A DNA stretch of 64,000 bases from an uncultured Calditrichaceae bacterium (GCA_964455375.1 CAYVXE010000003.1:2522-66521); one strand, 5' to 3'. Numbered from the stretch's first letter, positions 396 to 37,499 are shown. A program made the numbers and translations. Notes: generated by a model not told the origin, from the letters alone.

Positions 396-1589
396 TTAAT
401 CTCCTAATTTCCGTACAGCGTCTTTTATGTTTTTTACGGCTTCCTGCAGCAAATCCAAAGAGGCGGCATAAGAAATTCGAATATGATTTGAAGAACCAAA
501 CGCTTCTCCCGGAACCGCGGCCACACCGGCATCTTTCAGAAGGAACGAACAGAAATCCAGTGCATTTGTCAGCGTGCTGTCGCCGGCTTTTTTCCCAAAG
601 AAGGAAGAAACATTGGGGAACATATAAAACGCACCTTTGGGCAATGCACAGGAAAAACCGGGTATCCCGGAAAGCTGTGCAAACAAAAATTTCCTGCGTT
701 CATTGAAAGCGGTATGCATTGGCCTCAAAATACCGCTGTCCGCCTGCAATGCTGCGACACTCGCTTTCTGGGATATGGAACAGGGATTGGAGGTCGTATG
801 GCTTTGAATTTTTGCAACCGCTTTGCAAACAGCCTCATTGGCGGCAAGATAACCGATGCGCCATCCGGTCATTGCAAAGGATTTTGAAACACCGTTAACG
901 GTCAGAACCCGGTCTTTTATTTCGGAGTAGGATGCCAGGCTCACGTGCTGCATACCGTCGTAAATAATCTTCTCGTAAATTTCATCAAAAATCACAAAAA
1001 AATCATGCGCGTCGATAATTTTCACCAATGCATCAATTTCAGATTTAGAGTAGACGGCTCCGGTGGGGTTCGCTGGTGTATTCAACAGCAGAACTTTTGT
1101 TTGCGGTGTAATGGACGCTTCCAGTTGTTCCGGCGTAATTTTAAACGCCGTCTCTTCAGACGTGTGCAAAATAATCGGGGTTGCACCAACAAAACGAACC
1201 TGCTCCACATAGCTTGCCCAGTACGGCGCGGGAATAACGACGTCATCGCCTTCTTCGCACAAAGCAAGTAGAGCATTAATTATCGCATGTTTCGCTCCAC
1301 AAGTAACAACAATATTCGCCGGTTCAAAATCAATGCCATTTTCATTTTTGTACTTCCGGCATATTGCTTCTTTCAGTTCGAACATTCCGGAAACGGGGGT
1401 ATATTTTGTGAACCCGTCATTTATGGCCTGAATTGCCGCCTGCCTGATGACAGCGGGTGTATCGAAATCCGGTTCTCCGGCGCCGAGGTCAATAACCGTT
1501 TTCCCTTCACGCCGCATGCTGTCCACAAGCGACGTGATCGCCAGAGTCTGAGACGATTGTATGTTAGAGGTACGCAGAGCAAACGGCAT
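396..1589 (-). CDS. Class I/II PLP-dependent aminotransferase (aspartate/aromatic aminotransferase-like)
   Basis: 397-aa ORF. Fold-type I aminotransferase pattern, with the PLP-lysine motif context (...NGVSKSFAMTGWRIGY...) and the PANPTG motif typical of AspC-like enzymes. Confidence 0.85.
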   Translation of the reverse strand: MPFALRTSNIQSSQTLAITSLVDSMRREGKTVIDLGAGEPDFDTPAVIRQAAIQAINDGFTKYTPVSGMFELKEAICRKYKNENGIDFEPANIVVTCGAKHAIINALLALCEEGDDVVIPAPYWASYVEQVRFVGATPIILHTSEETAFKITPEQLEASITPQTKVLLLNTPANPTGAVYSKSEIDALVKIIDAHDFFVIFDEIYEKIIYDGMQHVSLASYSEIKDRVLTVNGVSKSFAMTGWRIGYLAANEAVCKAVAKIQSHTTSNPCSISQKASVAALQADSGILRPMHTAFNERRKFLFAQLSGIPGFSCALPKGAFYMFPNVSSFFGKKAGDSTLTNALDFCSFLLKDAGVAAVPGEAFGSSNHIRISYAASLDLLQEAVKNIKDAVRKLGD

Positions 1590-1601
1590 AGAGTATTCTC
1601 G

Positions 1602-2576
1602 CTAATTTAATAATGAACAAATACAGGCGACGTCCACAATGTCTTTCCATGAACAGCCGCGGGACAAATCGTTTGCCGGTTTGGCAAGGCCCTGGATAAT
1701 CGGGCCCACTGCTCGGGCGCCGGCAAGCCGTTCGGTGATTTTATAGGCAATATTTCCGGCATTTAAATCGGGGAAGATGAAAACATTTGCCTTTCCGGCG
1801 ACCGGACTACCCGGCGCTTTACGCTCACCGATGGATGTCACAATGGCTGCATCGACCTGCAAGTCACCATCGATTTTCAAGGCCGGTTGTTTCGATTTTG
1901 CAATGGCGACCGCTTCCTGAACCTTGTCGACCATCTCATGTTTTGCACTGCCTTTCGTAGAAAAAGAAAGCACCGCCACATACGGTTCCTCCCCCGTTAG
2001 CTTTTTGTGCGTTTCGGCAGATGAAATGGCGATGTCTGCCAACTGTGCCGGATCAGGTTGCGGCACCACCGCACAATCTGCGTAGGTAAGAACTTTTTCA
2101 TTATCAAAAACCATCTCAAAGGTACTGGAAACAAGTTCGATCTCAGGCGCCAGCCCAATGATTTGAATAGCTGCTCTGAGAACATCCCCGGTGGTATTGG
2201 CGGCCCCCGCGACGGAACCGTCGCACTGATTCTCCCGCACCATCATGGCGCCGTAAAACAACGGATTCCTCAAGGCATCAATGCTTTGCTGCCGTGAAAT
2301 GTTTTTATGTTTGCGCAATTGGAAATACGTGTCGGCAAAGGAATCAAAATATTCAGAGGCCGCGGGGTCGACGATTTGCACACCTTCCGAATCGACATGA
2401 TTTTCCCTGGCGACCTGTTTTATGTCATCCGCGTGGCCCAAAACCAGACAATCTAATATGCCTTCCTTTTGCAAATAATTCGCCGCCATTAATACACGTG
2501 CGTCATTTCCCTCCGGAAAAACGATCGTTTTGTTTAAGTCCTTCACTTTTAAACGTACAGCATCTAAAAACTTCAT
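1602..2576 (-). CDS. pta: Phosphate acetyl/butyryl-transferase (Pta/Ptb family)
   Basis: 324 aa. N-terminus MKFLDAVRLKVK...IVFPEGNDARVL and overall length match short-form phosphotransacetylases. Ends 4 nt inside coaD start (translationally coupled). Confidence 0.8.
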   Translation of the reverse strand: MKFLDAVRLKVKDLNKTIVFPEGNDARVLMAANYLQKEGILDCLVLGHADDIKQVARENHVDSEGVQIVDPAASEYFDSFADTYFQLRKHKNISRQQSIDALRNPLFYGAMMVRENQCDGSVAGAANTTGDVLRAAIQIIGLAPEIELVSSTFEMVFDNEKVLTYADCAVVPQPDPAQLADIAISSAETHKKLTGEEPYVAVLSFSTKGSAKHEMVDKVQEAVAIAKSKQPALKIDGDLQVDAAIVTSIGERKAPGSPVAGKANVFIFPDLNAGNIAYKITERLAGARAVGPIIQGLAKPANDLSRGCSWKDIVDVACICSLLN

Positions 2577-3067
2577 GCTTTTCCTAATTTTTCTAACAGC
2601 CTCCGGTTGACTTCCTCCGGTACAAACGTCGAGACATCCCCGGAAAACTTCGCAACTTCTTTCACAATGGTTGAATTCAAATAGGTATATTTTTCATTGG
2701 GCATTAGAAAAACCGTATCGATATTTTCGGCTAATTTTCTATTCATCAAGGCCATTTGAAATTCGTACTCAAAGTCCGTAATCGCCCGCAGTCCACGCAC
2801 AACCGCGTCGGCATTTTTTAATTTTGCATAATGCATGAGCAGACCGTCAAAGTTTTCCACACGAATATTGGTCAGCTTTGACGTTACGGTGTGAATCATC
2901 GCCACGCGTTCTTCAACCGTGAATAGCGGCGTTTTCGCAGGGTTGGTGGTGACTGCAACAATAATGGTGTCGAACAAATCTATGGCACGTTCAATGATAT
3001 CAAGATGGCCATTCGTAATCGGATCAAATGTCCCCGGATAAATAGCTGTTTTATGCTTGGTTGTCAT
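2573..3067 (-). CDS. coaD: Phosphopantetheine adenylyltransferase
   Basis: 164 aa. IYPGTFDPITNGHLDII nucleotidyltransferase signature (T/HxGH) at the N-terminus. Classic CoaD size. Confidence 0.9.
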   Translation of the reverse strand: MTTKHKTAIYPGTFDPITNGHLDIIERAIDLFDTIIVAVTTNPAKTPLFTVEERVAMIHTVTSKLTNIRVENFDGLLMHYAKLKNADAVVRGLRAITDFEYEFQMALMNRKLAENIDTVFLMPNEKYTYLNSTIVKEVAKFSGDVSTFVPEEVNRRLLEKLGKA

Positions 3068-3617
3068 ATTGAAAAAACGAAACGAGCGTGTCTCCCTGCT
3101 TTTTTTGTGATTTTAAAAAAAAACGGCCATTATCCGGAGAAAGCCGGTTGGCGGTTTTAGCTTCATGTTCAAGAATAAGCCAGCCCTTATCTTTTATAAT
3201 TTGCTGTTTTTCAACTTCTCTTAATGTTGACGCCGCGAGGTCTTTATAATATGGCGGGTCGGCGAAGATAATATCAAACTTTGTGCGTGACGCCGAAAAT
3301 CGTTTTATTGCTCTGCTGGTGCTCATTTTAAAAACGTCCGCCTTATTCACAAAGTTTGTTTTTAGCAAATTTTCGGAAATAATTTTTACCGATTTAAAAG
3401 CATTATCAATAAAAATAGCCTTGGCCGCCCCCCGGCTCAAGGCTTCAATTCCTAAGTTACCCGTTCCTGCGTACAAATCCAACACATGACTTCCGCACAT
3501 AAAACCTGCTAACACATTAAACATAACTTCTTTGTTTTGATCGGAAGTTGGTCTTATGGCATTACTTTTAAAAGCAGTTAACCGAATCCCTTTTCTCGAA
3601 CCGGCAATAATCCGCAT
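3051..3617 (-). CDS. rsmD: 16S rRNA (guanine966-N2)-methyltransferase RsmD
   Basis: 188 aa. MRIIAGSRKGIRL start, DLYAGTGNLGIEALSRGA SAM-binding motif and DPPY catalytic motif. rsmD-coaD adjacency is widely conserved. Confidence 0.85.
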   Translation of the reverse strand: MRIIAGSRKGIRLTAFKSNAIRPTSDQNKEVMFNVLAGFMCGSHVLDLYAGTGNLGIEALSRGAAKAIFIDNAFKSVKIISENLLKTNFVNKADVFKMSTSRAIKRFSASRTKFDIIFADPPYYKDLAASTLREVEKQQIIKDKGWLILEHEAKTANRLSPDNGRFFLKSQKKQGDTLVSFFQYDNQA

Positions 3618-3635
3618 TGGGTTAAAAACTCAAAC

Positions 3636-4766
3636 TCAGGACTGTTGATATAAGTACATATAAATCACAAGAACCAGATTCTCGTCACTGAAGGAAACCA
3701 TGTCAGGAGAAATCAGTTGCACCTTTGTGAGTTCAACATTAATGTTTTGGCTTGAAATTTCCTGTAAAAATCCAATGACCGACGACTGTGCACCATAAAT
3801 TCTGGCAAAAATGGGTGTTTTTTGGTAGCCCTGAACAAAAGAAGCCTGCTGCGATTTCAGTTGTTGAAGTTCCAGACCGTATTGCAAGCATGCATTCTTA
3901 ACCCAATCCTGCACCTGAGAAAGGGATAGGAATTCAACCTGTTCACCTGTACTCGCAGACCCCGAGGGTGACATTTTACCCGAAATCAAAATTCTATTAA
4001 GCTGTCCGCCATCTGCGGCAATCCGGTCTTCGGAGACAACAGAAAAAACACCCGAACCAAAACTTTGATTGAGTTGGTCAGCAAAACCATGAACTTGATC
4101 TGAGCTTTTTCCTAAAACTTCAATATGCACCCGTTGCCCGCTCAAAGAAAGCAGGGTTGTATTCAAAGAAGCCGGAACTTCCTGCATCAAACTGGCAACA
4201 GAGTTGACTGTAGAGCGAGTGGTGGACAAAAACTGCGACGAAACATTGTTTACATTTTCACGATTTGATGACGCTGGAACTCTGGGGGTCGTTATGACGT
4301 CCGCGGGTTGTCGTTTTGGCTGCGCCGGTTGTATGTTTTCGGGCTGCGTCTTAAGATCACTATTTGCTTGTGCGTTATCTGCGTTTGCCATCGGTTCTTC
4401 ATCAAAGGTAAATGGTTCCTCATTGTCGGCAGTAATATTTTCGCCAGGGTTCGAATCGGCTAAGTCTTGAGATTCATTTGTGAAGGGTGGAATATCTGCT
4501 TGCTGAGTGGTTGTTTTCCCGCCACTAAAAATAAAATAATATGCGGCAAGCGCCATGACAATGATAACAGCTACGATAATCAACGTAGACATCAAAGAAG
4601 AATAGCTTCTTCTTCTTGACAGTCCCGAGGTCTTGGTTGTGTCGAAAGTTTCCGTTCTTTCTTCAAAAGCCAATTCCTGAGTGTCCATGCTGGAAGTTTG
4701 AGTAAAATCTTCTACTCGTTCTTCTTCCCCAGTCTTATCATCACCAATTAAATTAATATCTACCAT
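3636..4766 (-). CDS. Membrane protein, possible PilN/PilO-like pilus assembly component
   Basis: 376 aa. About 70-aa cytoplasmic N-terminus, a single TM (LIIVAVIIVMALAAYYFIF), a long S/T/N/Q-rich linker and a C-terminal globular domain. Lies immediately downstream of the PilM-like gene, in the same operon context as PilN/PilO. Assignment is by position and architecture only. Confidence 0.4.
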   Translation of the reverse strand: MVDINLIGDDKTGEEERVEDFTQTSSMDTQELAFEERTETFDTTKTSGLSRRRSYSSLMSTLIIVAVIIVMALAAYYFIFSGGKTTTQQADIPPFTNESQDLADSNPGENITADNEEPFTFDEEPMANADNAQANSDLKTQPENIQPAQPKRQPADVITTPRVPASSNRENVNNVSSQFLSTTRSTVNSVASLMQEVPASLNTTLLSLSGQRVHIEVLGKSSDQVHGFADQLNQSFGSGVFSVVSEDRIAADGGQLNRILISGKMSPSGSASTGEQVEFLSLSQVQDWVKNACLQYGLELQQLKSQQASFVQGYQKTPIFARIYGAQSSVIGFLQEISSQNINVELTKVQLISPDMVSFSDENLVLVIYMYLYQQS

Positions 4767-4789
4767 GACTTACTCCAGTGTTTGGTGGA

Positions 4790-5749
4790 TTATTGGATGC
4801 CTCTTAAAGCCGCACCGACCGAAACCGTAAAGCGTTCGCCGCGCTCAGGGAGTCCTTCCCCCTGCTTGCCGATAGCTAGTTTTACTTTTCGAAAAGGGTT
4901 TGTACGATCAATATGGACATCATAATTGTTTTGCAAGCTTTCTAATATCCCATCTTCTACTGCTTCACCGTAGAGAAAAATTTCTTTCAAATCTTCCAGC
5001 GTTTTTCCCAGTTGGTGATCTAAAATCAGCCGCCGTAACTCTTTAGCAATAAAACGTGCGGTGCTCTCTTCATTTTCAGCGGAACCGTTAGGCGACGAGG
5101 AAATGCCGCCTTGAGTCAGAATCAGGTTTTTCCCCTTAATTAACGAAAAGTGAATTTTATTTTCTTCTACTTCAACAATAGCCAGTGTATCATCTTTTTC
5201 ATAATCATAATTTAACTGCAATGTTCGCTGTGCGGAAAACACATCGACGTCAACTACTTTTAATTTTAAGTTTGTGTGCTTAAACACTTGTCGCAAGAAC
5301 TTAATAATTTTTTTCCGAACAACCACAACCAGAATATCGTCCAAACCATTAGACGGCACGGTCTTTAACCTCTCAAAATCAACAACATATTCTTTCATGT
5401 TGGAGATGAGAAACTGACGGACTTCCCAGTTTATGTGATCTTCGATTCGCTCTTCAACCAGGGTGCTGTCGAAGGGAAGTTTTTTCACCATAACCATTTG
5501 CGAGTCAAGCGAAAAGGCGACGTTTTTGACGTCAAAATTTTGGGTTTCATACAGACGCTCAATATCTTCGGCGAGCCTCGGAATATTGTTTTTGTCTTCA
5601 AAAAACGAAAAATCAAACGGCTGTCTCACACGCCCCTGGCTCAGATGCGTTATATGAAACTCTTTTTCGTGCTGTCTTGCTTCAACGATTCTTAGTTGGT
5701 CGTTTACTAAACTAACCCCTAAGATCCCTGAATCCTCTTCCTGAGTCAT
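4790..5749 (-). CDS. pilM: Type IV pilus assembly protein PilM-like (actin-like ATPase fold)
   Basis: 319 aa. Blocks align with PilM: LGVSLVNDQLRIVEA vs IGIDISSTSVKLLEL, LKVVDVDVFSAQR vs LKVVDVEAYALER, LAIVEVEENKIHFSLIKGKNLIL vs [23 protein letters not shown], and the C-terminal TNPF..SVGAALRG motif. Confidence 0.7.
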   Translation of the reverse strand: MTQEEDSGILGVSLVNDQLRIVEARQHEKEFHITHLSQGRVRQPFDFSFFEDKNNIPRLAEDIERLYETQNFDVKNVAFSLDSQMVMVKKLPFDSTLVEERIEDHINWEVRQFLISNMKEYVVDFERLKTVPSNGLDDILVVVVRKKIIKFLRQVFKHTNLKLKVVDVDVFSAQRTLQLNYDYEKDDTLAIVEVEENKIHFSLIKGKNLILTQGGISSSPNGSAENEESTARFIAKELRRLILDHQLGKTLEDLKEIFLYGEAVEDGILESLQNNYDVHIDRTNPFRKVKLAIGKQGEGLPERGERFTVSVGAALRGIQ

Positions 5750-5773
5750 ATACTCCTCCGGTAAAATTTCAGC

Positions 5774-6664
5774 TTATTTTGCTTCCCAGCTTTTTTCGCC
5801 ATTTTCAATTTTACCATAATTTTCTATAGCGAAACCCCCGATTTTTGATTTAAGAAAATCACGCTTTACATTTTCAATATCCAAGCTGTCTATCGGGCAA
5901 TAAATATTGAGGTATTTAATTGTTGACGTATCATTATTCACAAGAACAAACGGTTTATGCGTAAAAGGGTCGTAATAAAGCGAGTCGAGACCATCGCCTC
6001 TATATTGCGGTATTTTTTCTAAAACAACCCGCAATTTACCAACAACTTCGTCAATAATATTGATGACACCTTGAGCGCCTTTGGTCGCATCCTCAAGAGA
6101 CCCATTTTGTGTGGAATTTATCACCACCGACATATCAATGGTAAACTGTTTAGAATCGATGGTCTTATAGGCCGCGGTTAAATCATCAATGGGCGTGTTC
6201 GGTATATTTTTTGTCCGATCATGAATGTATTCCACAAAACCTGCCAACTGTCTTGCATCCGCTTTCATCTTTTGCTGAACGTTTACGATTGAATCGATTA
6301 TCGTCGTGTCTTCCGCCATAGGGATCATCGACAATATTTGTTTCTCAGTTGTTTCAAATTCATTCAACCGGGTAATAATAGAATCTATGCCTCCGACAAT
6401 CACCGAATCAACATCATGTGCAAACGCATCACTCGTTTTTAGAAAATCAAGAACCACTTGCAGCGAATCTGAGTAATGACCATTGTATTTCTGATATTGC
6501 AACTCCGCTTTAAGTATCTGATCCATTCTCCATCGACCCATATCAATGTATTCTTGTTCCTTTTCTTTTAACATCTTCGGGTAAAGAATGGATGCCACCA
6601 ACAGTACCCCTAAAATTACAATGAGTAGTTCATAAACAATAGAACCCTTTCCTTTTTCCGCCAT
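5774..6664 (-). CDS. Type IV pilin-like protein (class III / prepilin-type signal peptide), unusually long
   Basis: 296 aa. N-terminus MAEKGKG|SIVYELLIVILGVLLVASILYP has a short basic leader, a Gly at the cleavage site, Glu at +5 and a hydrophobic helix, which is the prepilin peptidase substrate signature. Position +1 is Ser rather than Phe. Confidence 0.55.
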   Translation of the reverse strand: MAEKGKGSIVYELLIVILGVLLVASILYPKMLKEKEQEYIDMGRWRMDQILKAELQYQKYNGHYSDSLQVVLDFLKTSDAFAHDVDSVIVGGIDSIITRLNEFETTEKQILSMIPMAEDTTIIDSIVNVQQKMKADARQLAGFVEYIHDRTKNIPNTPIDDLTAAYKTIDSKQFTIDMSVVINSTQNGSLEDATKGAQGVINIIDEVVGKLRVVLEKIPQYRGDGLDSLYYDPFTHKPFVLVNNDTSTIKYLNIYCPIDSLDIENVKRDFLKSKIGGFAIENYGKIENGEKSWEAK

Positions 6665-6708
6665 TGTTCCTCCCTCATAAAATTTAAAATACGAATTTCA
6701 CATCTAAA

Positions 6709-7113
6709 TTACTTCAATGATATATACGATTTAATCTTTTCAAAGGTCCGCGCACCAATTCCTTTAATATGTTTCAAATCATCCAATGATTTAAATTGAC
6801 CATTTTTATCGCGATAATCAATAATTTTCTGAGCAGTTACAGGGCCAATGTTAGGGACTTTTTGTAACTCATTACTGTTTGCCTGGTTGATATTTATAAT
6901 TTGTTTTTTATTGCCGTCATTCTTTTGCCGGTGGTTGACGCGCTCTGAATCGATCAACGCAACTTTTTTATAAAATTCCACCCGATTATTTTCTGTACTT
7001 ACCTTATATTCAGCAGGCTGCACCCGCCGATAAAAGAAAACTCCCAACCCTACCAAAAATGTAAAAAGCAGAAACAGTACAACGCCCTGTTCCTGTCTGG
7101 TAAACCCTAACAT
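6709..7113 (-). CDS. comEA: ComEA-like competence DNA-binding protein (helix-hairpin-helix)
   Basis: 134 aa. N-terminal TM plus C-terminal ININQANSNELQKVPNIGPVTAQKIIDYRDKNGQFKSLDDLKHIKGIGARTFEKIK, the canonical ComEA tandem HhH motif. Confidence 0.75.
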   Translation of the reverse strand: MLGFTRQEQGVVLFLLFTFLVGLGVFFYRRVQPAEYKVSTENNRVEFYKKVALIDSERVNHRQKNDGNKKQIININQANSNELQKVPNIGPVTAQKIIDYRDKNGQFKSLDDLKHIKGIGARTFEKIKSYISLK

Positions 7114-7116
7114 TCG

Positions 7117-8265
7117 TTATAAAATAGCTTCCTTTATTCGAGAAAAAAAGCCGCCGTCCTCTTTAGACGGCAAAGAATTCTCACATTTATCCAATTCTTC
7201 AAAGAGCTGCTTTTCTTTCGCCGTCAATTTTGTGGGCGTCCAAACAACAACCCGTACAAGTTGATCGCCTTTTTCGAAACTGTTAAGGCGTGGAAAACCC
7301 TTTTTCCTCATTCTCAGAATTTTATTTGCCTGCGTGCCCGGTGGAATATGTAACCTTGATTTACCCTGTAGCGTAGGCACTTCAACTTCGGTTCCCAGTG
7401 CAACTTGTGCGAAACTCAACGGCAATGTATAAAGAACATCATCTCCGTGGCGCGCAAACAATTCATGTTCGATCTCCTCAATAACAACGATGACATCCCC
7501 GGCCGGCCCACCTCTTGGCGCCGCATTACCTTCATTTCGCACCGTCAAATAATTCCCAGCAGACACACCGGCGGGAATTTCTACGGTAATAACGCCTTGC
7601 CCTTTTACAACGCCTTCTCCGTGACACTCCTTACACGGATCTTTAATAACCTTGCCTTCACCATTGCATTGAGGACAGGTTCCAATATTAACAAACTGGC
7701 CAAACAAGGATTGTGAAACCTGACGAACCTCACCGGAACCGTGGCAATGTGGACACGTTGATTCAGAGGAACCCTTCCGGCTTCCATGACCCTGGCATGC
7801 ACTACAAACAATCCATTTTTTCAGTTTAATTTTTTTCTTAACACCGGTGGCGATTTCCTCATAAGTCAAAGGGAGTTTTACTTGTAAATCGTTACCCCGC
7901 CTTTTTCTTCTTGTACCATTGCCGTGCCCAGCACCAAAAAGGTCTCCGAAACCGAAGCTTTCAGACATGAAAGTGCGTAATGCATCCCCAAGGTCAAAGT
8001 CAAAACCGGCAAATCCCTGCGCCCCGCCTTTCAAACCACTATGCCCGAATCGATCATAGATCTGGCGCTTTTGAGGTTCCCTCAGCACCTCATAAGCTTC
8101 GGCGGCTTCTTTAAACTTACTTTCAGCTTCAGCATTGCCCTGATTGCGGTCGGGATGATACTTCATTGCCAGCTTACGATAAGCTTTTTTTATTTCCTCT
8201 TCGCTCGCAGTTTTTTGAATGCCTAATATTTCATAGTAGTCGCGTTTCGTCATATTGCCCAACAA
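7117..8265 (-). CDS. dnaJ: Molecular chaperone DnaJ
   Basis: 382 aa. J-domain (DYYEILGI...HPDRN), G/F-rich region, and four CxxCxGxG zinc-finger repeats. Confidence 0.95.
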
Positions 8266-8295
8266 ATTTCACATCAGTTACAATTACTTTACAAC

Positions 8296-8868
8296 CTAGT
8301 CACTTTTATTCACTAAAACCTGGGAGTGCCGCAGAACACGATCTCCCATAATATATCCCTTCAGATGTTCATCCACAACAACTCCCGGAGGAAAATTTTT
8401 GTCTTCAACCTGCATAAGCGCATCGTGCTTTTCCGGGTCAAAGGGCTTACCCACAGACTCCATGACTTTTACACCGCGACTCTCGAAAACCTTACTCAGA
8501 TTTTTATAAATTAACTCAACACCGGTAAATAGTGTCTGAAAATCTTTTGACTTTTTTGCCGCTACCAGCGACCGCTCCAAATCATCAAAAACAGGCAGCA
8601 GTTCTTTAATAAGTTCCGCACTCGCCATCATACCAACTTGAAGCATTTCTGCATCTGTTCGTTTTTTATAATTATCAAATTCAGCGACTTTTCTTAAAAA
8701 CTTATCTTTCAACTCCTCGATTTCCTTTTCAAGTCTTTCCGTTTTTCGTTGAAGCCCGGTGTGTGCACGGTTTCCGGATTTTTTCTTGGGGATACCGTTT
8801 TCACCTTTAGTCTTACCATTCTTTTCTTCAACTATCTTTTGAGCAACATTTTTCTCGGAACTACTCAT
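8296..8868 (-). CDS. grpE: Nucleotide exchange factor GrpE
   Basis: 190 aa. Coiled-coil N-terminus, FDNYKKR motif and C-terminal beta-domain typical of GrpE. Located between hrcA and dnaJ. Confidence 0.9.
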   Translation of the reverse strand: MSSSEKNVAQKIVEEKNGKTKGENGIPKKKSGNRAHTGLQRKTERLEKEIEELKDKFLRKVAEFDNYKKRTDAEMLQVGMMASAELIKELLPVFDDLERSLVAAKKSKDFQTLFTGVELIYKNLSKVFESRGVKVMESVGKPFDPEKHDALMQVEDKNFPPGVVVDEHLKGYIMGDRVLRHSQVLVNKSD

Positions 8869-8890
8869 AAAAAAACCTCCCGTTAAAAAT

Positions 8891-9934
8891 CTAACACCAC
8901 ACAGAACAAAGTTTTCGGGTTAGTACATCCCCCATAAAGCTAACAAGAGGAATAATTCTGGAATAATGCATTCTTGTGGGCCCCACAACTCCCAACGTCC
9001 CCACAACACGACCTAAGCGATACCTCGCGGAAATAACACTGTACTCGCTGAACAACTCTCCTTCGTTTTCCCGCCCGATTCTTACGGTAAGATTGTCTGT
9101 CTGGGTCGCATTCAAAAAATGTAAAATATCCTCTTTCTTATCGATGAGTTCAATAATTTTTGACGCATGTACGTGATCAGAAAATTCGGGATTTGACATG
9201 ATATTCATCGTTCCCCCCACATGCAAATCTTTCTGTTTTTGAAAAGAAAACAGCCGGTCGGCAAAACGGATAATTGTCCGCAGCAACATCGGATTGCTTA
9301 TTCCGGTATCCGCCAATCGTTTGTCAAGCGTTTCTTTTACTTCTTTCAATGAAAGTCCGGATAGCCTTTCATTGATTATCCTGCTAGTCTCATGTAGCTG
9401 ATCACGCGACACTTCTGACTGTATTTCCATCATAATGGTATTCACTAAACCCGACTCAATGGTGATAACAGACAAAATCCTGTTATCCGAAATGGAAACC
9501 AGTTCCATTTTGTTAAAAACACCATTGTAGAAACTCGGTTCCAACACAACCCCTAATTGGCTTGAAATTTCACCCAGAACCCGCGATGAAACTTCAAGGA
9601 TCTCTTCGACATCAATGGATAAATTGCTAAAATTAGCTAAAATTAATTGCCGGTCATGCTCACCAAACGCATTGGTGGAGGTTAAACAATCAACATAAAA
9701 CCGGTAACCTTTATCGGTGGGAATTCTACCGGCTGAAACGTGAGGCTGTTTTAAGTAACCCATTTCCTCAAGATCATTCATGACATTGCGAATGGTCGCC
9801 GGACTAATCCCCAAATTATATGTTTTGGCCAAATACCGAGATCCTACAGGCTGCGCATTTCGGACATAGCTCTCAACGATGTGCTTCAATAAGGTACGCT
9901 CTCTTTCTGAGAGCACGCTTGATGTCTTCATCAT
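8891..9934 (-). CDS. hrcA: Heat-inducible transcription repressor HrcA
   Basis: 347 aa. N-terminal winged helix (LLKHIVESYVRNAQPVGSRYLA...GISPATIRNVMNDLEEMGYL) is diagnostic of HrcA. Confidence 0.9.
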   Translation of the reverse strand: MMKTSSVLSERERTLLKHIVESYVRNAQPVGSRYLAKTYNLGISPATIRNVMNDLEEMGYLKQPHVSAGRIPTDKGYRFYVDCLTSTNAFGEHDRQLILANFSNLSIDVEEILEVSSRVLGEISSQLGVVLEPSFYNGVFNKMELVSISDNRILSVITIESGLVNTIMMEIQSEVSRDQLHETSRIINERLSGLSLKEVKETLDKRLADTGISNPMLLRTIIRFADRLFSFQKQKDLHVGGTMNIMSNPEFSDHVHASKIIELIDKKEDILHFLNATQTDNLTVRIGRENEGELFSEYSVISARYRLGRVVGTLGVVGPTRMHYSRIIPLVSFMGDVLTRKLCSVWC

Positions 9935-10071
9935 GCAAAAATCTCAAAATATTTCACGTTTACTATCGATCAAAATCGACGGTATTTCATTATAAATTAA
10001 CTCGAAGATAGTGATTTTTCCCTTGTTTGTCAAGCAAAAACTATTTGTGATAAATTAAGTTAAATTCATAA

Positions 10072-17471: not shown

Positions 17472-18755
17472 TTAGGTTTTACGTTTCTTCTTTTTTGCAG
17501 CGGGAAATAGAATATTGTTCAAAATCAAGCGGTAGCCGGGTGAGTTTTTATGCAGCGATAGTTGCGTTGGCGGGTCATACACGTAGTGCTGATAATCTTC
17601 AGGGTCGTGACCACCGTAAAACGTAAACGTTCCGCGACCTAGATTGCCGTGAAGGTATTTTACTTCCTCGGTTCCTTCCATTTCCGCTAAAATAGTGACA
17701 GATTTCTTGATTAAACTCTTTTTAAATCCCGTGGTTTGTCCCATAAATCCTTTGATAACAGACACATGGTTTTGTGTTAACATCGTGGGCACCGGATCGT
17801 ATTTTGCCGAAAATTCAAACAACGTGAAGAAATCTGCATCGGCACTACGAATACGGGGCATGTTACTTGGCGGGAAATCGATATCCGAATGTTCATAAAC
17901 CAACGGGTTAAACTCCGGGGTAAAATTCTCAAAGGCAAGGGTTTTCGAATAGTCCAACATTGCCAGTGCATTCGAAGCCACCGGATCGCCATCAAAAACA
18001 GCCGGGACAATATCGGTCTTTTCTGCCGCAAAAGCTAAATCAATCGTATCTGTTGCAGAACACATAGCAAACAGAAATCCGCCACCCGCCACATAATTTT
18101 TAATGGCCCGGGCAACGGCCTTTTTTTCTTCCGACACTTTTGAGTAACCGGTTTTTTTCGCCATAGCTTCATTTTTCACGACCTCCTCAATATACCAGGA
18201 AGCATTTCGAAAATTCGCATAAAACTTTCCATACTGACCCGTAAAATCTTCATGGTGCAGATGCAGCCAGTCGTACTTTTTTAAATCTCCATCTAAGACA
18301 CCTTCATCCCAAACAGTTTTGTACGGGACTTCTGCATAGGTTAAAGCCAGAGTAACGGCATCATCCCAAACCTGTTTGTTGGGTGGCGTATAAATGACGA
18401 TCCTGGGAGCTTTCTCCAATAATACAACATCCATGTTTTGCTGCTCGATTTCAGCATAAATTTGTGCGGCCTGTGCGCCAGAGATGTTTGAAAAAGCAAC
18501 TCCCCGCAAACGCAGCTCCCGCTCAACCGCCGGATAATAGTCCATCATAAAAGAGCCGCCGCGATAATTCAGCAACCATTCTACGGGAATGGCACGCTGA
18601 AGAGCCCAAAACGCCACACCGTACGCTTTTAAGTGATCGGTCTGTTTTAAATCCATGTTGATAAGGATTTTTTGGGCAAAAACAGTCGTTACATTGTACC
18701 CGCAAAATAAAATTAACAAACCGAAAAAAAGCGAACGAAGTTTTTTTGCTTTCAT
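17472..18755 (-). CDS. Secreted hypothetical protein with class-I glutamine-amidotransferase-like (ThuA/DUF4159-like) core
   Basis: 427 aa with signal peptide. Motif LHLHHEDFTG...YVAGGGFLFAMCSATD parallels LFMTGHGKISFS...YLLAGGFLYADDDYG of the 24002-24679 protein, so the two are paralog-like. Confidence 0.45.
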   Translation of the reverse strand: MKAKKLRSLFFGLLILFCGYNVTTVFAQKILINMDLKQTDHLKAYGVAFWALQRAIPVEWLLNYRGGSFMMDYYPAVERELRLRGVAFSNISGAQAAQIYAEIEQQNMDVVLLEKAPRIVIYTPPNKQVWDDAVTLALTYAEVPYKTVWDEGVLDGDLKKYDWLHLHHEDFTGQYGKFYANFRNASWYIEEVVKNEAMAKKTGYSKVSEEKKAVARAIKNYVAGGGFLFAMCSATDTIDLAFAAEKTDIVPAVFDGDPVASNALAMLDYSKTLAFENFTPEFNPLVYEHSDIDFPPSNMPRIRSADADFFTLFEFSAKYDPVPTMLTQNHVSVIKGFMGQTTGFKKSLIKKSVTILAEMEGTEEVKYLHGNLGRGTFTFYGGHDPEDYQHYVYDPPTQLSLHKNSPGYRLILNNILFPAAKKKKRKT

Positions 18756-20618: not shown

Positions 20619-23600
20619 TCAATTGCTTAGCGTTCCCTGAGCCTGTTCTTTGGCCAGGGCGTCAAAATACTTTTGGATAAGTTCACGGTAGTCTTTTGAA
20701 TATCCTTCTTTAAGTGCTTTTAAGAGCTCACTTTTTAAACGGATAGACTCTGTCCGGCCAAAATCCGGAAGCGCGCCCGGACTCAAAGCTTGCACCTGTT
20801 TTCCGGTTTTAGCCCGACGCTTATTGCTGAAATCTCTGCTATGCATGGACTTTTGCGCATCCAACAGTCGGGACAAGATGTTCTTCTGCCGGTCAATCGT
20901 TTTTCGGTTCACATTTTTGCGCATGAGATCATTCACTACATCGGCCATTTCGTTCCCCACCTTTTCCAGGTCGCCGAGGATCTCCGAACGGTTTTTGTAT
21001 TCCTTATTTAATTGTTCGAGCGATTTCCGCAGTGCTTCCTGTTGTGCCGCCAGGCGTTGCATAGCAGCGCCCTGTTCCATACTCATGCCCGGCTTCTGAC
21101 CCAGCTCGGATGTTTGCTGGTTGAGACTTTTTTGCTGGCCGGAAATTCCCATGAGCTGCTGCATCATTTCCTGGAAACCAATCCCCGATGAGGCGCCGCT
21201 CATGCTCTGCATGGAATTATGAAGCTGTGAAACGGCTTCATTCAGCCCTCCCATGGCCTGTGCCTGATTTCGCGTTGTTCTGCTGGAATTTCTCGCTTCA
21301 TATTGCTGCAACGCTTTCTGCATTCCGCTGATTGATTTACCCAGTGCCTGCCCAATTTGCGGTGTAATAAAAAACGTCTCTTGCGAAAGGTCATAGAGTT
21401 GGTTTGTCACTCGGGAAAGTCCCGAGAGTAAATTTTCCTGCTCATCTGCCAATTCGGTCATGCCCGGCGTGTTCCGGTCTGTCCCCTCGGTCTTTTTCAT
21501 CAATGCTTCTTGGCGTTTTGACAGATTTAACAAGTCGTTGGAAGAGCGCTTAAACGCCTGCATGAGTTTCTGTTTCTCCTTTTCCGTCATCTGCTCTTTT
21601 GCAGACTGCAACGATTGCAGCATTTGTTTTAGATTCTGAGAAATCTGTTGCCCGGATTGCTGAGCATTTTGCATGTCGCCGGACTGAAACTGATTTGCCG
21701 CCTGCTGCATCTGCTCCTGTAGTTGCGCCCCCGCCTGTTCTTTGGCTTTTTGCATGTCTTCCTGCGGCATCTGCGGAAATTCTCCCATCTGCTTTGAAAG
21801 TTTCGTTAAATCCTTTTCGAGGCTTTGAGTGTCTTGTTTGATTCCCTCTTGATCTTTGGCGTATTTTTCCGATTTCTTTGTATTTTGGGATTCGCCAGCC
21901 TGCTTGTTTAACGCTTCCTGGCGCCGAACAAGTTCCTGCGCTTTTCGCACCATTTCATCCATTTTCTGCTCAATTTGCAATTTCTTCAGTAAATTCACCG
22001 TCCGCTCCATTCCTTTCAAAAAGTCTTCCTGGGACTCAGACAGTTTCTTTACCGCTTCCTGAAGCTTTTGCGGATTCAATTGGTCCATTGACTTTTGCAA
22101 TTCGGCGAGCGCCTTTTTCAAATCTTCCGTGAGCAGCTCTTGCATCAATTGCTGTAACTCACGATATTTATCCAATGTTTCCTGAGAAAGCAAATCATTC
22201 TGCTCCAGTCGGTTAACCATCTCATCCAACTTATTTTGCAACTCCTGCACTTTCTCCTGCACTTTCTCCTGAGCTTGAACCGCATCCTGAATCTTTTGTT
22301 TTTCCTCCCAATTCAGGTCTGGATTGCGCTTCATTTGCTGCACAGCATTATCGAGAGTTGCTTTGAGTGATTTACTTTCCTCCACAAGACTTTTTAACTC
22401 ATCATACGTCTCATCCTGACTCTCCGCAACTTCGTCAAAAATCTCATTCATGGAAGGCAACCGAACGCGGTATTCTTCACTTTTGGCGCTTTTGGGTCCT
22501 GAAACGTCGTCATTATCGAAAACCTCGGCGAAATAACTAACGACATCTCCGGGAGAGAGGCCGTAACCGCCAAGGCTCCAGTTATGATTAACTAATATTT
22601 GATCAGCAGAAGGAGATGGCAGTGGTAGTTGGAGAACCTGTTCTTCTTTAGCTTCAAATCCGCCGCTTAAAACCTGAAATCGCAATCTCAATTGTGAAAA
22701 ACCAAAATCGTCTTGTGCTTCAATACTTAACGGTAAAATCATATCCTTGCCGAGATCAACATCCCGTCCCGGAAAAGCAATTTGTACAAAAGGTATCTGA
22801 TCGGCAATCGTCTCGATGCGATAATTTATTGGAGAATCGTTGGTAAGATGTAATTGGTCTTGCAAAAAAATCTGATAGCTGCCGCTTTTGTTGAGGACAA
22901 ACTGCCCGGAAAGTTCCTGTCCCGAATGTTTGAGCGAGACATTTTTCCCGTCGTTAAATCGAATACTCGCATCGGAAACCGGTTTGTTTGACAACAGCTT
23001 CAACGTGACTTTTGAGCCACGTAACGCAGAAATATCCCCGACATTTTCATCCAAATACTGTGTCCCCAATTTCGAGTATTCCGGAAATGAAATACTCGCC
23101 TGCAAACTGCGGACAAACGGTCGTTCAACCACAGAAATGGCGTACGTTTCCGTTTGTTGTTTCCCTTTTCGAAAATAGTATTCCGTCTCTTCCTTAATCG
23201 CCGGGATCGTATAAACAAACTGGTTCTGGTCAGATGAGGCAAGTTTAATCTCTTCGAATCTTTCAGCAGATGTTTTCTTTAAAAACAATCCTATCTCCGA
23301 CCCCTCCAGTCCCGAAACAAACGCTTTTATTGGAACATCGTCCCCTTTCACGGCCTGATAGTTACCCGGCGCTACTTTAATTGTTACGACCGGCCCGGCA
23401 TTAAATTCCCGAAACGGATGGCTTAACCTAAACGCGGCGTCTTGCAGTGTAACCGGGAAGAGAGCAAAAACCACTACACATAAAACGGTAAATCCTGCCA
23501 CGGGTTTTAACCAACGAATAACTTTTTGACGGTCGGCCACATCACAAAAGTTGATGTTTTTCGTTTCAGAAAAAATCGACTCAAGAGAAGCATTCGCTAA

Positions 23601-23993
23601 TTCCCTTGAATGACTTCCTGTGCCACGACAACTTTCCCGATAAACTTGCAGCGCGTCTGCCAAGCGGTCCTTTATCTGTGAATGAAACTTGCCAACTTTT
23701 AACGCCAGGACAATATCATCCGGTTTTTTTTGTTTTAAAGCCATTAATATCAATGGTTTAATTACAAACCATATTAAAGAAAAGAACAATGTGAGTAAAC
23801 TGAATACGGCCAAGACAGTCCTGATTGGGGATGAAAACCGAAAAAGTGATTCAAATAAAGTCGACAGTACCGACAGAACCACGATGATGAGAAAGCCAAT
23901 AAGCAGGCCCCGCAAAAGGCTAAACTTTTTTTCGCGTCGGCGTAATTTCGCCAGACGGTCTACCAGACTTTTATATTGTTGCTCAACCTTCAT
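20619..23993 (-). CDS. Large membrane-anchored coiled-coil protein (double-TM N-terminus, possible DUF4175-like)
   Basis: 1124 aa. Two N-terminal TM helices and a third near residue 170, a beta-rich middle region and a roughly 450-aa K/E/Q-rich coiled-coil C-terminus. The family name comes from recalled architecture and was not checked. Confidence 0.55.
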   Translation of the reverse strand: MKVEQQYKSLVDRLAKLRRREKKFSLLRGLLIGFLIIVVLSVLSTLFESLFRFSSPIRTVLAVFSLLTLFFSLIWFVIKPLILMALKQKKPDDIVLALKVGKFHSQIKDRLADALQVYRESCRGTGSHSRELANASLESIFSETKNINFCDVADRQKVIRWLKPVAGFTVLCVVVFALFPVTLQDAAFRLSHPFREFNAGPVVTIKVAPGNYQAVKGDDVPIKAFVSGLEGSEIGLFLKKTSAERFEEIKLASSDQNQFVYTIPAIKEETEYYFRKGKQQTETYAISVVERPFVRSLQASISFPEYSKLGTQYLDENVGDISALRGSKVTLKLLSNKPVSDASIRFNDGKNVSLKHSGQELSGQFVLNKSGSYQIFLQDQLHLTNDSPINYRIETIADQIPFVQIAFPGRDVDLGKDMILPLSIEAQDDFGFSQLRLRFQVLSGGFEAKEEQVLQLPLPSPSADQILVNHNWSLGGYGLSPGDVVSYFAEVFDNDDVSGPKSAKSEEYRVRLPSMNEIFDEVAESQDETYDELKSLVEESKSLKATLDNAVQQMKRNPDLNWEEKQKIQDAVQAQEKVQEKVQELQNKLDEMVNRLEQNDLLSQETLDKYRELQQLMQELLTEDLKKALAELQKSMDQLNPQKLQEAVKKLSESQEDFLKGMERTVNLLKKLQIEQKMDEMVRKAQELVRRQEALNKQAGESQNTKKSEKYAKDQEGIKQDTQSLEKDLTKLSKQMGEFPQMPQEDMQKAKEQAGAQLQEQMQQAANQFQSGDMQNAQQSGQQISQNLKQMLQSLQSAKEQMTEKEKQKLMQAFKRSSNDLLNLSKRQEALMKKTEGTDRNTPGMTELADEQENLLSGLSRVTNQLYDLSQETFFITPQIGQALGKSISGMQKALQQYEARNSSRTTRNQAQAMGGLNEAVSQLHNSMQSMSGASSGIGFQEMMQQLMGISGQQKSLNQQTSELGQKPGMSMEQGAAMQRLAAQQEALRKSLEQLNKEYKNRSEILGDLEKVGNEMADVVNDLMRKNVNRKTIDRQKNILSRLLDAQKSMHSRDFSNKRRAKTGKQVQALSPGALPDFGRTESIRLKSELLKALKEGYSKDYRELIQKYFDALAKEQAQGTLSN

Positions 23994-24001
23994 TTTGACC
24001 C

Positions 24002-24679
24002 TCAGTTGGTCAGAGCGTAAACGATGATGTTCGTTCCCATTTCAAATGCTTTTTGCCGGATATTTTCAGGATCTCCGTGGACTTCCGGGTCAGCCCACCC
24101 ATCTGAAATATTTGTATCGAATGTATAAAATACGACCATTCGCCCATCGTGAAAGATTCCGTAGGTTTTCGGAGGGCCGCCGTCATGTTCGTGAATTTTG
24201 GGAGAGCCGCTGGGAAAATTAAAGTGGTTATGAAAAATTTCGTGAGAAAACGGAAGTTCAACTAATTTTTTATCCGGAAAAACTTTTTTAATTTCTTCAC
24301 GAAAAGACTTGTCCATTCCATAATCGTCATCAGCATACAAAAATCCACCTGCAAGTAAATACTTTCGTAATCGTTCGGCTTCACTTTTTGAAAAAGAAAT
24401 TTTTCCGTGGCCGGTCATAAACAACACGGGATAGGAAAATAACTCCTCATCACTAATTTCTACGACCGTTTGATCCTTTCCCGTAGTTATATTCGTATTT
24501 TTTTTCAGAAAACTCAACATATTAGGAATAATAGAAGGATCATTGTACCAATCGCCGCCGCCGCTGTATTTTAAACGCGAGATTGTGAAATCACCGCTGT
24601 CCGTTGTTGGTTGAGCAAACCCAGCGGTAACATAAAGCAAAAGTAAAAAAAGACGTAGCATTTTCGGTTTCATTAGCAA
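24002..24679 (-). CDS. DUF4159-like secreted protein (GATase1/ThuA-like fold)
   Basis: 225 aa. Signal peptide and motifs YPVLFMTGHG...LLAGGFLYADDDYG. Downstream partner of the giant TM protein. Confidence 0.5.
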   Translation of the reverse strand: MLMKPKMLRLFLLLLYVTAGFAQPTTDSGDFTISRLKYSGGGDWYNDPSIIPNMLSFLKKNTNITTGKDQTVVEISDEELFSYPVLFMTGHGKISFSKSEAERLRKYLLAGGFLYADDDYGMDKSFREEIKKVFPDKKLVELPFSHEIFHNHFNFPSGSPKIHEHDGGPPKTYGIFHDGRMVVFYTFDTNISDGWADPEVHGDPENIRQKAFEMGTNIIVYALTN

Positions 24680-36984: not shown

Positions 36985-37323
36985 TTATTTCTCTAATCTG
37001 ATTAATAAGTCTCCATACTCGACTTTTAATCTTTCAAAGGTAACTTGATTAAAACCCTTCCTGGCCATAAGAAGAATCATTTTATTTTCAGGCAGACGAT
37101 TGTTATCTCTTCTGAATAACTCCCGAAGTCTCCTTTTTGCTCTGTTTCGCTTAACTGCACCAGATATTTTTTTTGAAACGGCAAATCCAACCTTTTTTTC
37201 TTCAGCATCTAATGCAATTAATAAAATATGGTTTGAATGGTATCGTTTTCCGTGAGTAAACATCTTGCTAAAGAGTAACGGACTTTTAATGATCAGCCGC
37301 TTTGATAAACGGTGTTTTTTCAC
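36985..37323 (-). CDS. rnpA: Ribonuclease P protein component
   Basis: 112 aa basic protein lying between rpmH and yidD. RnpA-like KR-rich motif. Confidence 0.8.
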   Translation of the reverse strand: MKKHRLSKRLIIKSPLLFSKMFTHGKRYHSNHILLIALDAEEKKVGFAVSKKISGAVKRNRAKRRLRELFRRDNNRLPENKMILLMARKGFNQVTFERLKVEYGDLLIRLEK

Positions 37324-37340
37324 AAAATTGCTTTGGTGGG

Positions 37341-37484
37341 TTACCTGTCACTTACTGTTAAACTTTTTCTTCCTTTAGCCCTCCGGGAACTCAAAACAGC
37401 ACGTCCGGACTTAGTTTTCATTCTTGCCCTGAAACCGTGTTTGTTCACTTTCTTTCTATTGCTTGGCTGAAATGTTCTTTTCAT
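37341..37484 (-). CDS. rpmH: 50S ribosomal protein L34 (not in ORF track because it is under 60 aa)
   Basis: Manual translation of the minus strand gives [47 protein letters not shown] (47 aa). This is the canonical L34 MKRTFQPS...HGFR.RM.T..GR.VL..RR.KGR motif, placed directly upstream of rnpA. Confidence 0.85.
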
Positions 37485-37499
37485 GGCATGCCTTTTAAT

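Follow-up and report, generated by a model that had tools for sequence, protein, structure and literature searches.

The DNA analysed here, a 64-kb stretch from an uncultured Calditrichaceae bacterium (the window; positions are counted along its whole length), carries a unit of four genes directly behind hrcA-grpE-dnaJ. As a conserved unit it is firmly established: it encodes PilM, a bitopic partner of the PilN/PilO type (376 residues; X4 in the following), a protein whose anchor is a helix of the pilin type, and a DNA-binding protein of the ComEA type. Our preferred interpretation, held tentatively and with a probability of roughly 0.45, is that of a phylum-wide inner-membrane complex which derives from the assembly platform of type IV filaments and does not extend a filament. 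The labels of homologues and of 35 genome loci assign the organism to the candidate phylum KSB1 (Zhuqueibacterota), with some records reading Calditrichaeota or Caldithrix.

The unit lies on the minus strand within an array of eleven genes (396-9934), hrcA-grpE-dnaJ-comEA-pilin-like-pilM-X4-rsmD-coaD-pta-aspC, whose order, strand and open reading frames (ORFs) had been correctly recognized by an earlier reading of the sequence alone (the sequence-only reading), the flanking genes now being backed by Pfam (Table 1). A single genome of each species was searched for the motifs invariant in X4, which gave 35 loci, and their gene order was read by tblastn with the window proteins. In every locus on a sufficiently long contig the order is ftsE-ftsX-hrcA-grpE-dnaJ-comEA-pilin-like-pilM-X4-rsmD-coaD(-pta-aspC), and loci reached via distant relatives of the pilin-like protein agree; the module occurs in all KSB1 lineages that were examined. 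Across these loci, the three pilus-type proteins are 20-60% identical, DnaJ and CoaD 60-80%. With dozens of full-length homologues each (20-67% identity) and an order kept in about 40 species-level loci, the four ORFs can safely be regarded as genuine genes. We found no description of the module in the literature on pili or competence in KSB1/Zhuqueibacterota.

How well are the individual components identified? The product of pilM matches the PilM family (PF11104) with 88.9 bits (E 4e-25, cut-off 27) and has no match to the FtsA family at E <= 1, and its best matches in the PDB are all PilM proteins (Myxococcus xanthus, 7.6e-15; Pseudomonas aeruginosa and Thermus, about 6e-6). It scores 67.9 bits with the stricter subfamily model TIGR01175, under the cut-off of 133. 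Judged by these matches, the product of 4790-5749 is a true PilM, the actin-like ATPase of the type IV pilus platform, in agreement with its original call.

PilN has a short cytoplasmic N-terminus, in which the motif bound by PilM reads INLLP, followed by one membrane-spanning helix and a periplasmic ferredoxin-like domain. The cytoplasmic part of X4 comprises 56 residues, of which M1-L6 (MVDINL) do not vary among 46 homologues, the most distant at 22% identity, and recur in each of the 35 genome loci. In PilN, the N-terminal stretch to which PilM attaches is highly conserved (PMC5805733), and MVDINLIG of X4 is plausibly its counterpart. Beyond the transmembrane (TM) helix, the periplasmic domain matches GspL and GspM nearly as well as PilO, the best Pfam match within the X4 family being T2SSM_b (8e-9); X4 thus has the build of the PilO/GspM group, that is, a bitopic protein with a PilO-type fold (PF04350 or PF10741). 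We read X4 as a probable single-chain stand-in for PilN and PilO together. The PilN/O-like nature assigned to it earlier is therefore upheld by its PilN-like tail and PilO/GspM fold, but the low-complexity linker of about 200 residues ascribed to it shrinks to about 87 disordered residues, followed by a confidently modelled domain at residues 168-376.

A further segment of the X4 cytoplasmic part, FTQTSSMDTQELAFEERTETFDTTKT, is 26 residues long, acidic and rich in threonine. It is near-invariant in the close clade, where it is more conserved than the folded periplasmic domain, and absent in the divergent clade.

The third component had been described as a 296-residue pilin candidate with the prepilin leader MAEKGKG followed by SIVYELLIVILG, with Ser at +1 and Glu at +5, and this description is accurate. 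A class III signal peptide has a short hydrophilic leader with Gly at its end, then a stretch of about 21 residues that are mainly hydrophobic (Berry & Pelicic 2015, PMC4471445), and the window protein, reading MAEKGKG and then SIVYELLIVILGVLLVASILYP, conforms to it. These features are family-wide. Of the family members, 225 carry the Gly motif. Their leader usually measures 7-9 residues, with Lys or Arg at -2 in 199, position +1 is Ser in 176 and Asn in 34, and Pro+22 occurs in 224; a few distant members lack Gly-1. A word-indexed search returns 98 homologues of the protein, an exhaustive profile search 435 cluster representatives of its family. The family has no Pfam model, and the window protein has no Pfam match.

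Where this N-terminus comes from is indicated by profile comparisons. In the PDB, the family profile finds type IV pilins as its best matches, over residues 11-79: PilA of Thermus (6xxd, E 0.001), then the major pilin PilA in entry 8tj2 (E 0.035). Among NCBIfam models, GspG scores best, matched by 53 of 63 members (best E 1.5e-6) and by the window protein with E 0.0094 and 16 bits (cut-off 88.9); ComGE is matched by 18 of the 63. All of these NCBIfam matches remain under the cut-offs and cover the N-terminal region only. The Pfam N_methyl model (PF07963) is matched by 7 of the 63 at E >= 0.048, and no curated N-terminal methylation or pilin profile (Pfam N_methyl, NCBIfam) reaches threshold. 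From these matches, weak as they are, the long N-terminal helix (residues 8-61) can be considered a homologue of alpha-1 in type IV pilins and GspG, and the first 80 or so residues pilin-type.

What follows this helix is of a different kind. In the AlphaFold2 (AF2) model of the protein (predicted local distance difference test score, pLDDT, 88.9), an N-terminal helix of 56 residues is followed by a helical bundle and then by a small C-terminal domain, whose strands span 240-245, 250-255 and 285-287. A pilin fold has the second half of alpha-1 packed against an antiparallel beta-sheet, often with a disulfide near the C-terminus. The insert forming the bundle has four helices, and fold searches with the globular part returned helical bundles only, with no pilin fold or other informative match. 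At the one orthologous locus, family members range from about 150 to about 690 residues. Short forms consist of the N-terminal 95 or so and the C-terminal 70 or so residues with the CPIDS and NHGKIExGEKSW blocks, and the same slot between comEA and pilM holds a 154-residue form in one locus and a 669-residue form in another; the family therefore has a pilin-sized core with a lineage-variable middle insert of 0 to about 500 residues. The pilin assignment stands for the N-terminus, with its matches to PilA and GspG. For the protein as a whole it is not supported: no profile passes its threshold, Lys occupies position +5 in 37% of the family, and fold searches recovered no pilin fold. We also considered Cys232 and Cys256 as an obligatory disulfide of the pilin type and rejected it; the two cysteines are not lost together across the family, and the window protein has only one of them.

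Position +5 bears on whether the protein polymerizes. Glu+5 is near-invariant in bacterial pilins, and Glu5 mutants of true pilins are unable to homopolymerize (PMC4471445). In the family, position +5 is Glu in 135 members (60%), among them the window protein (Glu12), Lys in 83, Arg in 4, Gln in 2 and Asp in 1 (n=225), with independent switches from Glu to Lys in several clades. As Glu5 is needed for homopolymerization, the presence of Lys in 83 of 225 members speaks against polymerization, as do the few distant members without Gly-1. No signal of co-variation was seen between the +5 residue (Glu or Lys) and the TM or juxtamembrane segment of X4.

The remainder of a filament machine is not found alongside the module. 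Among the ORFs of at least 110 residues scanned across the window there is no secretin, PilB/PilT or PilC, as the sequence-only reading had remarked, and no PilD; nor does any other ORF of the window have a signal peptide of the class III type, hence there are no further pilins. A complete type IV pilus, competence or type II secretion machine, with an ATPase (PilB/GspE/ComGA), PilC/GspF, a peptidase and a secretin, is not found among these ORFs. Likewise, by precomputed Pfam labels, extension ATPase, platform protein, peptidase and secretin are all lacking in the flanks of 8-10 kb on either side of about 40 related loci.

For the rest of the genomes, Table S7 of Li et al. 2022 lists KEGG Orthology (KO) assignments by KofamKOALA for 44 metagenome-assembled genomes (MAGs) of KSB1 in clades I-IV, clade II being a sister phylum in a later study. 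In the part of this table used here, pilD is present in 0 of 6, 9 of 11, 1 of 12 and 9 of 15 MAGs of clades I, II, III and IV, and gspE in 0 of 6, 11 of 11, 1 of 12 and 9 of 15; gspD occurs in five clade IV MAGs only and cpaA/tadV in five clade III MAGs only, and gspD, gspF and gspG are absent from most of the MAGs. When accessions and isolate names are matched to the same part of the table, at least five module-bearing MAGs have zero entries for pilD (K02654), cpaA (K02278), gspE and gspD, including GCA_011775825.1 (L013), GCA_011774205.1 (L047), GCA_004357015.1 (L006), GCA_002084535.1 (L038) and GCA_002085355.1 (L032). As far as these entries go, the absence of an annotated peptidase and GspE-type ATPase from such genomes weakens the idea of an extending pilus. 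The KO pattern in this part of the table is structured by clade, whereas the module is present in all clades.

The strongest competitor to a non-extending complex is a canonical type IV or competence pilus whose genes are scattered, with PilM, the merged PilN/O, one pilin and ComEA encoded here, and the ATPase, PilC, prepilin peptidase, secretin and further pilins elsewhere. In that case the pilin-like protein would be cleaved after Gly7 and polymerized, and the members with Lys+5 would be subunits of the tip or minor type. Pilus genes are often scattered around genomes, and in the table of Li et al., as far as it was used, pilD, gspE and gspD are present in some KSB1 lineages. The class III signature has been retained (Gly-1, a basic leader of 7-9 residues, a hydrophobic helix, Pro+22, and Glu+5 in 60% of members), and the N-terminal matches are to major pilins and GspG. 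The gene has a very strong Shine-Dalgarno sequence, as would befit a structural subunit, and the hypervariable insert would be exposed as in surface pilins. The Thermus PilMNO complex, moreover, binds the major pilin and serves pili and DNA translocator alike (PMC6325625). We regard a canonical pilus as a serious possibility that still falls clearly short of an even chance.

Several points weigh against our own interpretation. The strict conservation of Gly-1, the constant short basic leader and Pro+22 are most easily explained by recognition by a prepilin peptidase, and wherever they have been studied, PilM, PilN and PilO work in filament assembly (PMC4471445, PMC6325625). A filament is also favoured by the strong ribosome-binding site of the pilin-like gene and by the exposed, variable insert of its product. 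The KO evidence is indirect: the MAGs are of 700-800 contigs, KOfam thresholds can miss divergent enzymes, the part of the table used covers no pilB, pilC, pilQ or comEC, and a MAG of a pilD-positive species scores zero in it, so that incompleteness matters. In sum, the evidence for and against a filament is about even, with a slight edge to the non-extending complex over the canonical pilus. In its most far-reaching form, of which we are a shade more doubtful, our interpretation describes a phylum-wide complex derived from a pilus platform that no longer builds filaments, or never did, and that does without peptidase, ATPase and secretin. The pilin helix would then be a docking anchor for a hypervariable bundle, in a complex hard-wired to the DnaJ/GrpE operon and coupled to ComEA.

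The fourth component, ComEA, has an N-terminal FT(K/R)QE motif, one TM helix and a C-terminal helix-hairpin-helix (HhH) DNA-binding domain. The HhH domain (TIGR00426 / PF12836) is clearly present, with 66.5 bits for TIGR00426 (cut-off 53.1), and together with the HHH_3 match (Table 1) confirms the comEA call. To the full-length model TIGR01259 only the C-terminal 78 residues align, with 92.6 bits, under the cut-off of 152.35; the HhH domain also matches T2SSK models, weakly. The label of a competence pilus, applied earlier to the whole module, does not follow from this identification: a role of the complex in DNA uptake is suggested only by the adjacency of ComEA. We rejected the N-terminus of ComEA, LGFTRQE (residues 1-8, 7090-7113), as a second prepilin site; its Gly is missing from the divergent clade, and what the orthologues conserve is FT(K/R)QE, directly before the TM helix.

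The comEA gene is bound closely to dnaJ. In the window its start lies 3 nt past the dnaJ stop codon (7114-7119), and in most of 36 loci the distance from dnaJ to comEA is -14 to +9 nt, with overlaps of 4 or 14 nt in many species, which suggests translational coupling of the two genes across the phylum. A hairpin with a T-run in the 3' end of dnaJ, considered as an attenuator parting comEA from dnaJ, was discarded, the T-run reflecting conserved Phe-Phe codons and the GC stem being unconserved in 36 orthologous loci.

A near-perfect promoter-like site of the sigma-70, housekeeping type precedes hrcA (Table 1). About 29 related loci have a copy of it, perfect or with one mismatch, 51-82 nt before the hrcA gene, and no comparable site recurs from hrcA to coaD in these loci. 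Terminator-like sites are no commoner in the region than in shuffles, and a systematic scan for hairpin-terminators gave just 2 in about 100 intergenic gaps, none of them conserved downstream of the hrcA promoter. The gaps within the module are all below 75 nt in the window's clade, and X4 is followed by rsmD after 3-29 nt in 34 of 36 loci. Given a promoter before hrcA only, the tight dnaJ-comEA junctions and the lack of conserved terminators, co-transcription from the hrcA promoter is the simplest reading, and the module is very probably transcribed together with hrcA-grpE-dnaJ; rsmD-coaD-pta-aspC probably belong to the same transcription unit. Internal promoters inside coding regions may exist. 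Neither terminator nor promoter is thus conserved that would part the pilus genes from the hrcA operon, as had been considered at the outset, and the co-transcription then proposed looks plausible on sequence grounds.

In the divergent clade, imperfect hairpins with T-runs occur in L031 (gap between comEA and the pilin-like gene) and in L034 and L036 (gap between the pilin-like gene and pilM), and could attenuate locally. They lie below the strict scan and are not conserved; as that scan gave only 2 hits in about 100 gaps, we consider such hairpins, seen by eye, as one-offs.

Co-transcription does not imply a heat-shock regulon. The CIRCE operator (controlling inverted repeat of chaperone expression), sought as TTAGCACTC-N9-GAGTGCTAA, is absent at <=3 mismatches from the window and at <=4 mismatches from 40 related loci, and the conserved promoter region has no inverted repeat of the CIRCE type. 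Without CIRCE, nothing ties the hrcA promoter to HrcA, and the stress co-regulation of the module under HrcA that had been hinted at lacks a site for HrcA to act on. A link between competence and the HrcA regulon is known from the pneumococcus (PMC6560143), which gives a precedent for the idea and no evidence here. There, chaperones (HrcA and CtsR regulons) are expressed along with the DNA-uptake machinery, but what joins them is regulation, acting on separate operons through HrcA-binding sites, while here it would be physical co-transcription with no CIRCE.

The spacer of the hrcA promoter is also conserved (…AAAAATTAGTATCTT) in loci L002-L039, which hints at some other regulatory input.

Within the module, translation appears to favour the pilin-like protein. 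Its gene is preceded by GAGGGAGGA or AAGGAGGGA in nearly all of about 36 loci, while the Shine-Dalgarno sequence is weaker for pilM and X4 and missing for rsmD. As it is strongest on the pilin-like gene, phylum-wide, the pilin-like protein is probably the most abundantly translated of the module.

Departures from the standard arrangement were observed in loci of more distant lineages. In L042 (7515-9533) PilM leads straight to rsmD, with no PilN/O-like gene, and the pilin-like protein lacks the Gly-Ser site. In L043 (1065-4939) a gene of the PEBP family stands between comEA and the pilin-like gene. In L044 (3694-5106) PilM and X4 give way to a single protein of 470 residues, laid out like GspL: its N-terminal half is PilM-like, and a TM helix and a periplasmic part follow. 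A clean fusion of PilM and X4 it is not: the first half resembles PilM only weakly (24% identity, E 3e-4), and the periplasmic half shows no significant similarity to X4 and has no Pfam match.

Could the module be a platform for a pseudopilus of the type II secretion system (T2SS) instead? PilM and X4 would then correspond to a split GspL/GspM, the pilin-like protein would be a pseudopilin with a helical insert, comparable to GspK, which likewise has an insert and lacks Glu5, and the function would be protein secretion, not DNA uptake. The similarity of X4 to the periplasmic domains of GspL and GspM, the top rank of GspG among NCBIfam models, the fused layout in L044 and the faint T2SSK matches of the ComEA HhH domain would all suit a T2SS-like platform. 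The GspG similarity, however, is limited to the shared N-terminal helix and stops past about 70 residues, the periplasmic half of the L044 protein does not resemble X4 significantly, and, except possibly in L044, PilM and its membrane partner are separate genes. There are no T2SS genes nearby, hence no GspD/E/F context, and the scarcity of gspD, gspF and gspG in the KO entries used points the same way. We consider a T2SS-like function very improbable.

Genomic location could offer a further, trivial explanation of the conserved order. The array does not end at hrcA, as had been supposed, but goes on through ftsX, ftsE and about 20 more minus-strand genes as far as rnpA (37.3 kb), up to the replication origin at about 37.5 kb. 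The origin lies in the region 36985-39290 (intergenic 37324-37940), with rnpA/yidC/mnmE/mnmG/rsmG on the minus strand on one side and dnaA/dnaN/recF/gyrB/gyrA on the plus strand on the other; the GC skew changes sign at 36-40 kb, along with the flip in strand bias, and perfect DnaA boxes (TGTGGATAA) are found at 37682-37690 and 37825-37833. The module is therefore on the leading strand, 31-34 kb from oriC, and this location alone explains the long co-directional array. The four genes might accordingly be mere neighbours with no shared function, their order frozen in an origin-proximal, slowly rearranging block of housekeeping genes. The block indeed also holds the unrelated ftsEX, rsmD, coaD, pta and aspC, the link of comEA to dnaJ is tighter than that to the pilin-like gene, and L043 has an unrelated gene inserted between comEA and the pilin-like gene. 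Yet every system studied has PilM, PilN/O and a pilin-type helix as physical partners (PMC4471445, PMC6325625), the trio is contiguous even where its flanks vary, and in one lineage PilM is apparently fused to a TM segment. Chance neighbourhood is thus unlikely, if a little less so than a secretion platform.

What would a non-extending complex look like? It would be made constitutively as part of the hrcA-grpE-dnaJ transcription unit. The known biology of the parts (PMC4471445, PMC6325625) predicts, by analogy, a clamp of PilM on a membrane-partner tail and a platform that binds a pilin-type helix: cytoplasmic PilM would clamp the invariant X4 tail (MVDINL...), while the X4 TM helix and the PilO-fold periplasmic modules would form the platform. 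Into this the abundant pilin-like protein may dock via its pilin-type N-terminal helix, holding its lineage-variable helical bundle in the periplasm, and membrane-anchored ComEA would supply DNA binding. The pilin-like protein would more likely be membrane-anchored, or at most a short periplasmic stub, than an extending surface pilus, and the complex would act as a static scaffold in the periplasm and might form the inner-membrane end of a route for DNA uptake. The data show what the parts are and how they fold, the conserved gene order, the pattern of promoter and spacing, the split between Glu and Lys at +5 and the variable insert; the physical contacts, the lack of polymerization and any role in DNA uptake we infer.

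Closest among known systems come the PilMNO platform, the Thermus DNA translocator, GspL/GspM with GspG and GspK, and a cluster of Akkermansia. With PilM-PilN-PilO(-PilP) of Pseudomonas, Myxococcus and Thermus, the module shares a true PilM, a bitopic partner with tail, TM helix and PilO fold, and a neighbouring protein with a pilin-type helix. Unlike there, one gene replaces pilN and pilO, and its product differs in its two alpha/beta modules, its long disordered linker and a further motif on the cytoplasmic side; pilP and pilQ are missing, the genes belong to the hrcA-grpE-dnaJ unit, not to a pil operon, and the module is also present in genomes with no PilD or ATPase annotated in the KO entries used. 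The DNA translocator of Thermus thermophilus (PilMNO, ComEA, PilA1-4, ComZ) likewise combines a platform with a membrane-anchored ComEA and an unusually large pilin-like protein, and Thermus PilA is the best PDB match of the pilin-like family profile. The ComZ of Thermus carries a beta-solenoid, the insert described here is a helical bundle, and the Thermus genes stand in separate operons with PilW, PilQ and PilF, whereas no secretin or ATPase is near the module. Thermus PilMNO is a pilin-binding complex that also couples to the ATPase (PMC6325625). The 'pili-like' cluster Amuc_1098-Amuc_1102 of Akkermansia muciniphila, in another context and another phylum, has a secretin-type gene (Amuc_1098) and no ComEA, and its sequence similarity to the module is marginal.

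PilM/N/O and pilins count as components dedicated to filament machines. If our interpretation is correct, a platform can exist and be selected without a pilus, which would bear on the evolution of type IV filament machines and on platform mechanics; the complex would be a new functional class in the type IV filament superfamily, and could be a pilus-independent route of DNA uptake or envelope sensing. Apart from this interpretation, the analysis defines an unannotated protein family of 435 cluster representatives, and the locus would provide a concrete example of translational coupling between DnaJ and a DNA-binding ComEA.

Table 1. Genes of the eleven-gene array, segments of their products and regulatory sequences in the window.
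Feature	Position	Strand	Basis or remark
hrcA promoter-like site, sigma-70-type, TTGACA-17-TATCTT	10005-10033	-	71 nt upstream of hrcA; probable transcription start
hrcA	8891-9934	-	Pfam HrcA, 183 bits
grpE	8296-8868	-	Pfam GrpE, 162 bits
dnaJ	7117-8265 (alternative ATG 8253)	-	Pfam DnaJ, DnaJ_C, DnaJ_CXXCXGXG
Terminator-like hairpin with T-run	7141-7173	-	inside dnaJ 3' end; judged fortuitous
comEA	6709-7113	-	134 residues; HHH_3, 83.3 bits
Shine-Dalgarno sequence GAGGGAGGA	6668-6676	-	strong; 3 nt upstream of pilin-like ATG
Pilin-like gene	5774-6664	-	296 residues
Pilin-like, leader MAEKGKG (residues 1-7)	6644-6664	-	ends in conserved Gly; statistics over 225 family members
Pilin-like, long N-terminal helix (residues 8-61)	6482-6643	-	Glu+5, Pro+22; AF2 helix 6-61, pLDDT about 90
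Pilin-like, helical-bundle insert (residues 68-229)	5978-6463	-	variable part of family
Pilin-like, conserved C-terminal domain (residues 230-296)	5777-5977	-	CPIDS and N(H/Y)GKIExGEKSW blocks; alignments
pilM	4790-5749	-	319 residues; PF11104
X4 (PilN/O-like)	3636-4766	-	376 residues
X4, N-terminal tail MVDINLIGDD	4737-4766	-	PilN-like candidate PilM-binding motif
X4, second cytoplasmic motif FTQTSSMDTQELAFEERTETFDTTKT	4629-4706	-	alignment of homologues
X4, TM helix (residues 57-80)	4527-4598	-	AF2, pLDDT about 90
X4, disordered, biased periplasmic linker (residues 81-167)	4266-4526	-	pLDDT 39-64; indel-rich alignment, length varies
X4, folded periplasmic region (residues 168-376)	3639-4265	-	helix and two alpha/beta modules; PilO/GspM/GspL-periplasmic fold
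Downstream block	396-3617	-	
rsmD	3051-3617	-	Pfam
coaD	2573-3067	-	
pta	1602-2576	-	
aspC	396-1589	-	

The genes of the array are tightly packed, with overlaps between pta and coaD (4 nt) and between coaD and rsmD (17 nt), as had been noted earlier; the gaps, however, are not all 30 nt or less but range from 3 to 44 nt, the widest being that between comEA and the pilin-like gene. The gap between grpE and dnaJ is 30 or 42 nt, set by the choice of the dnaJ start, which is ambiguous: TTG at 8265 yields 382 residues, ATG at 8253 yields 378. On a second contig of the same organism (L046), an independent gene call of dnaJ has the ATG start and 378 residues. By Pfam, dnaK is not among the genes of the hrcA-grpE-dnaJ operon, and the operon lacks it throughout the phylum. 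Elsewhere in the window, ORFs at 17472-18755 (-), 46613-47932 (+), 53751-54308 (+) and 54345-55973 (-), of 427, 439, 185 and 542 residues, have no Pfam match at E <= 1e-5. In the same leading-strand array as the module, at 20619-24679 (-), a DUF4175 protein of 1124 residues adjoins a DUF4159 protein, flanked by tetratricopeptide repeat proteins.

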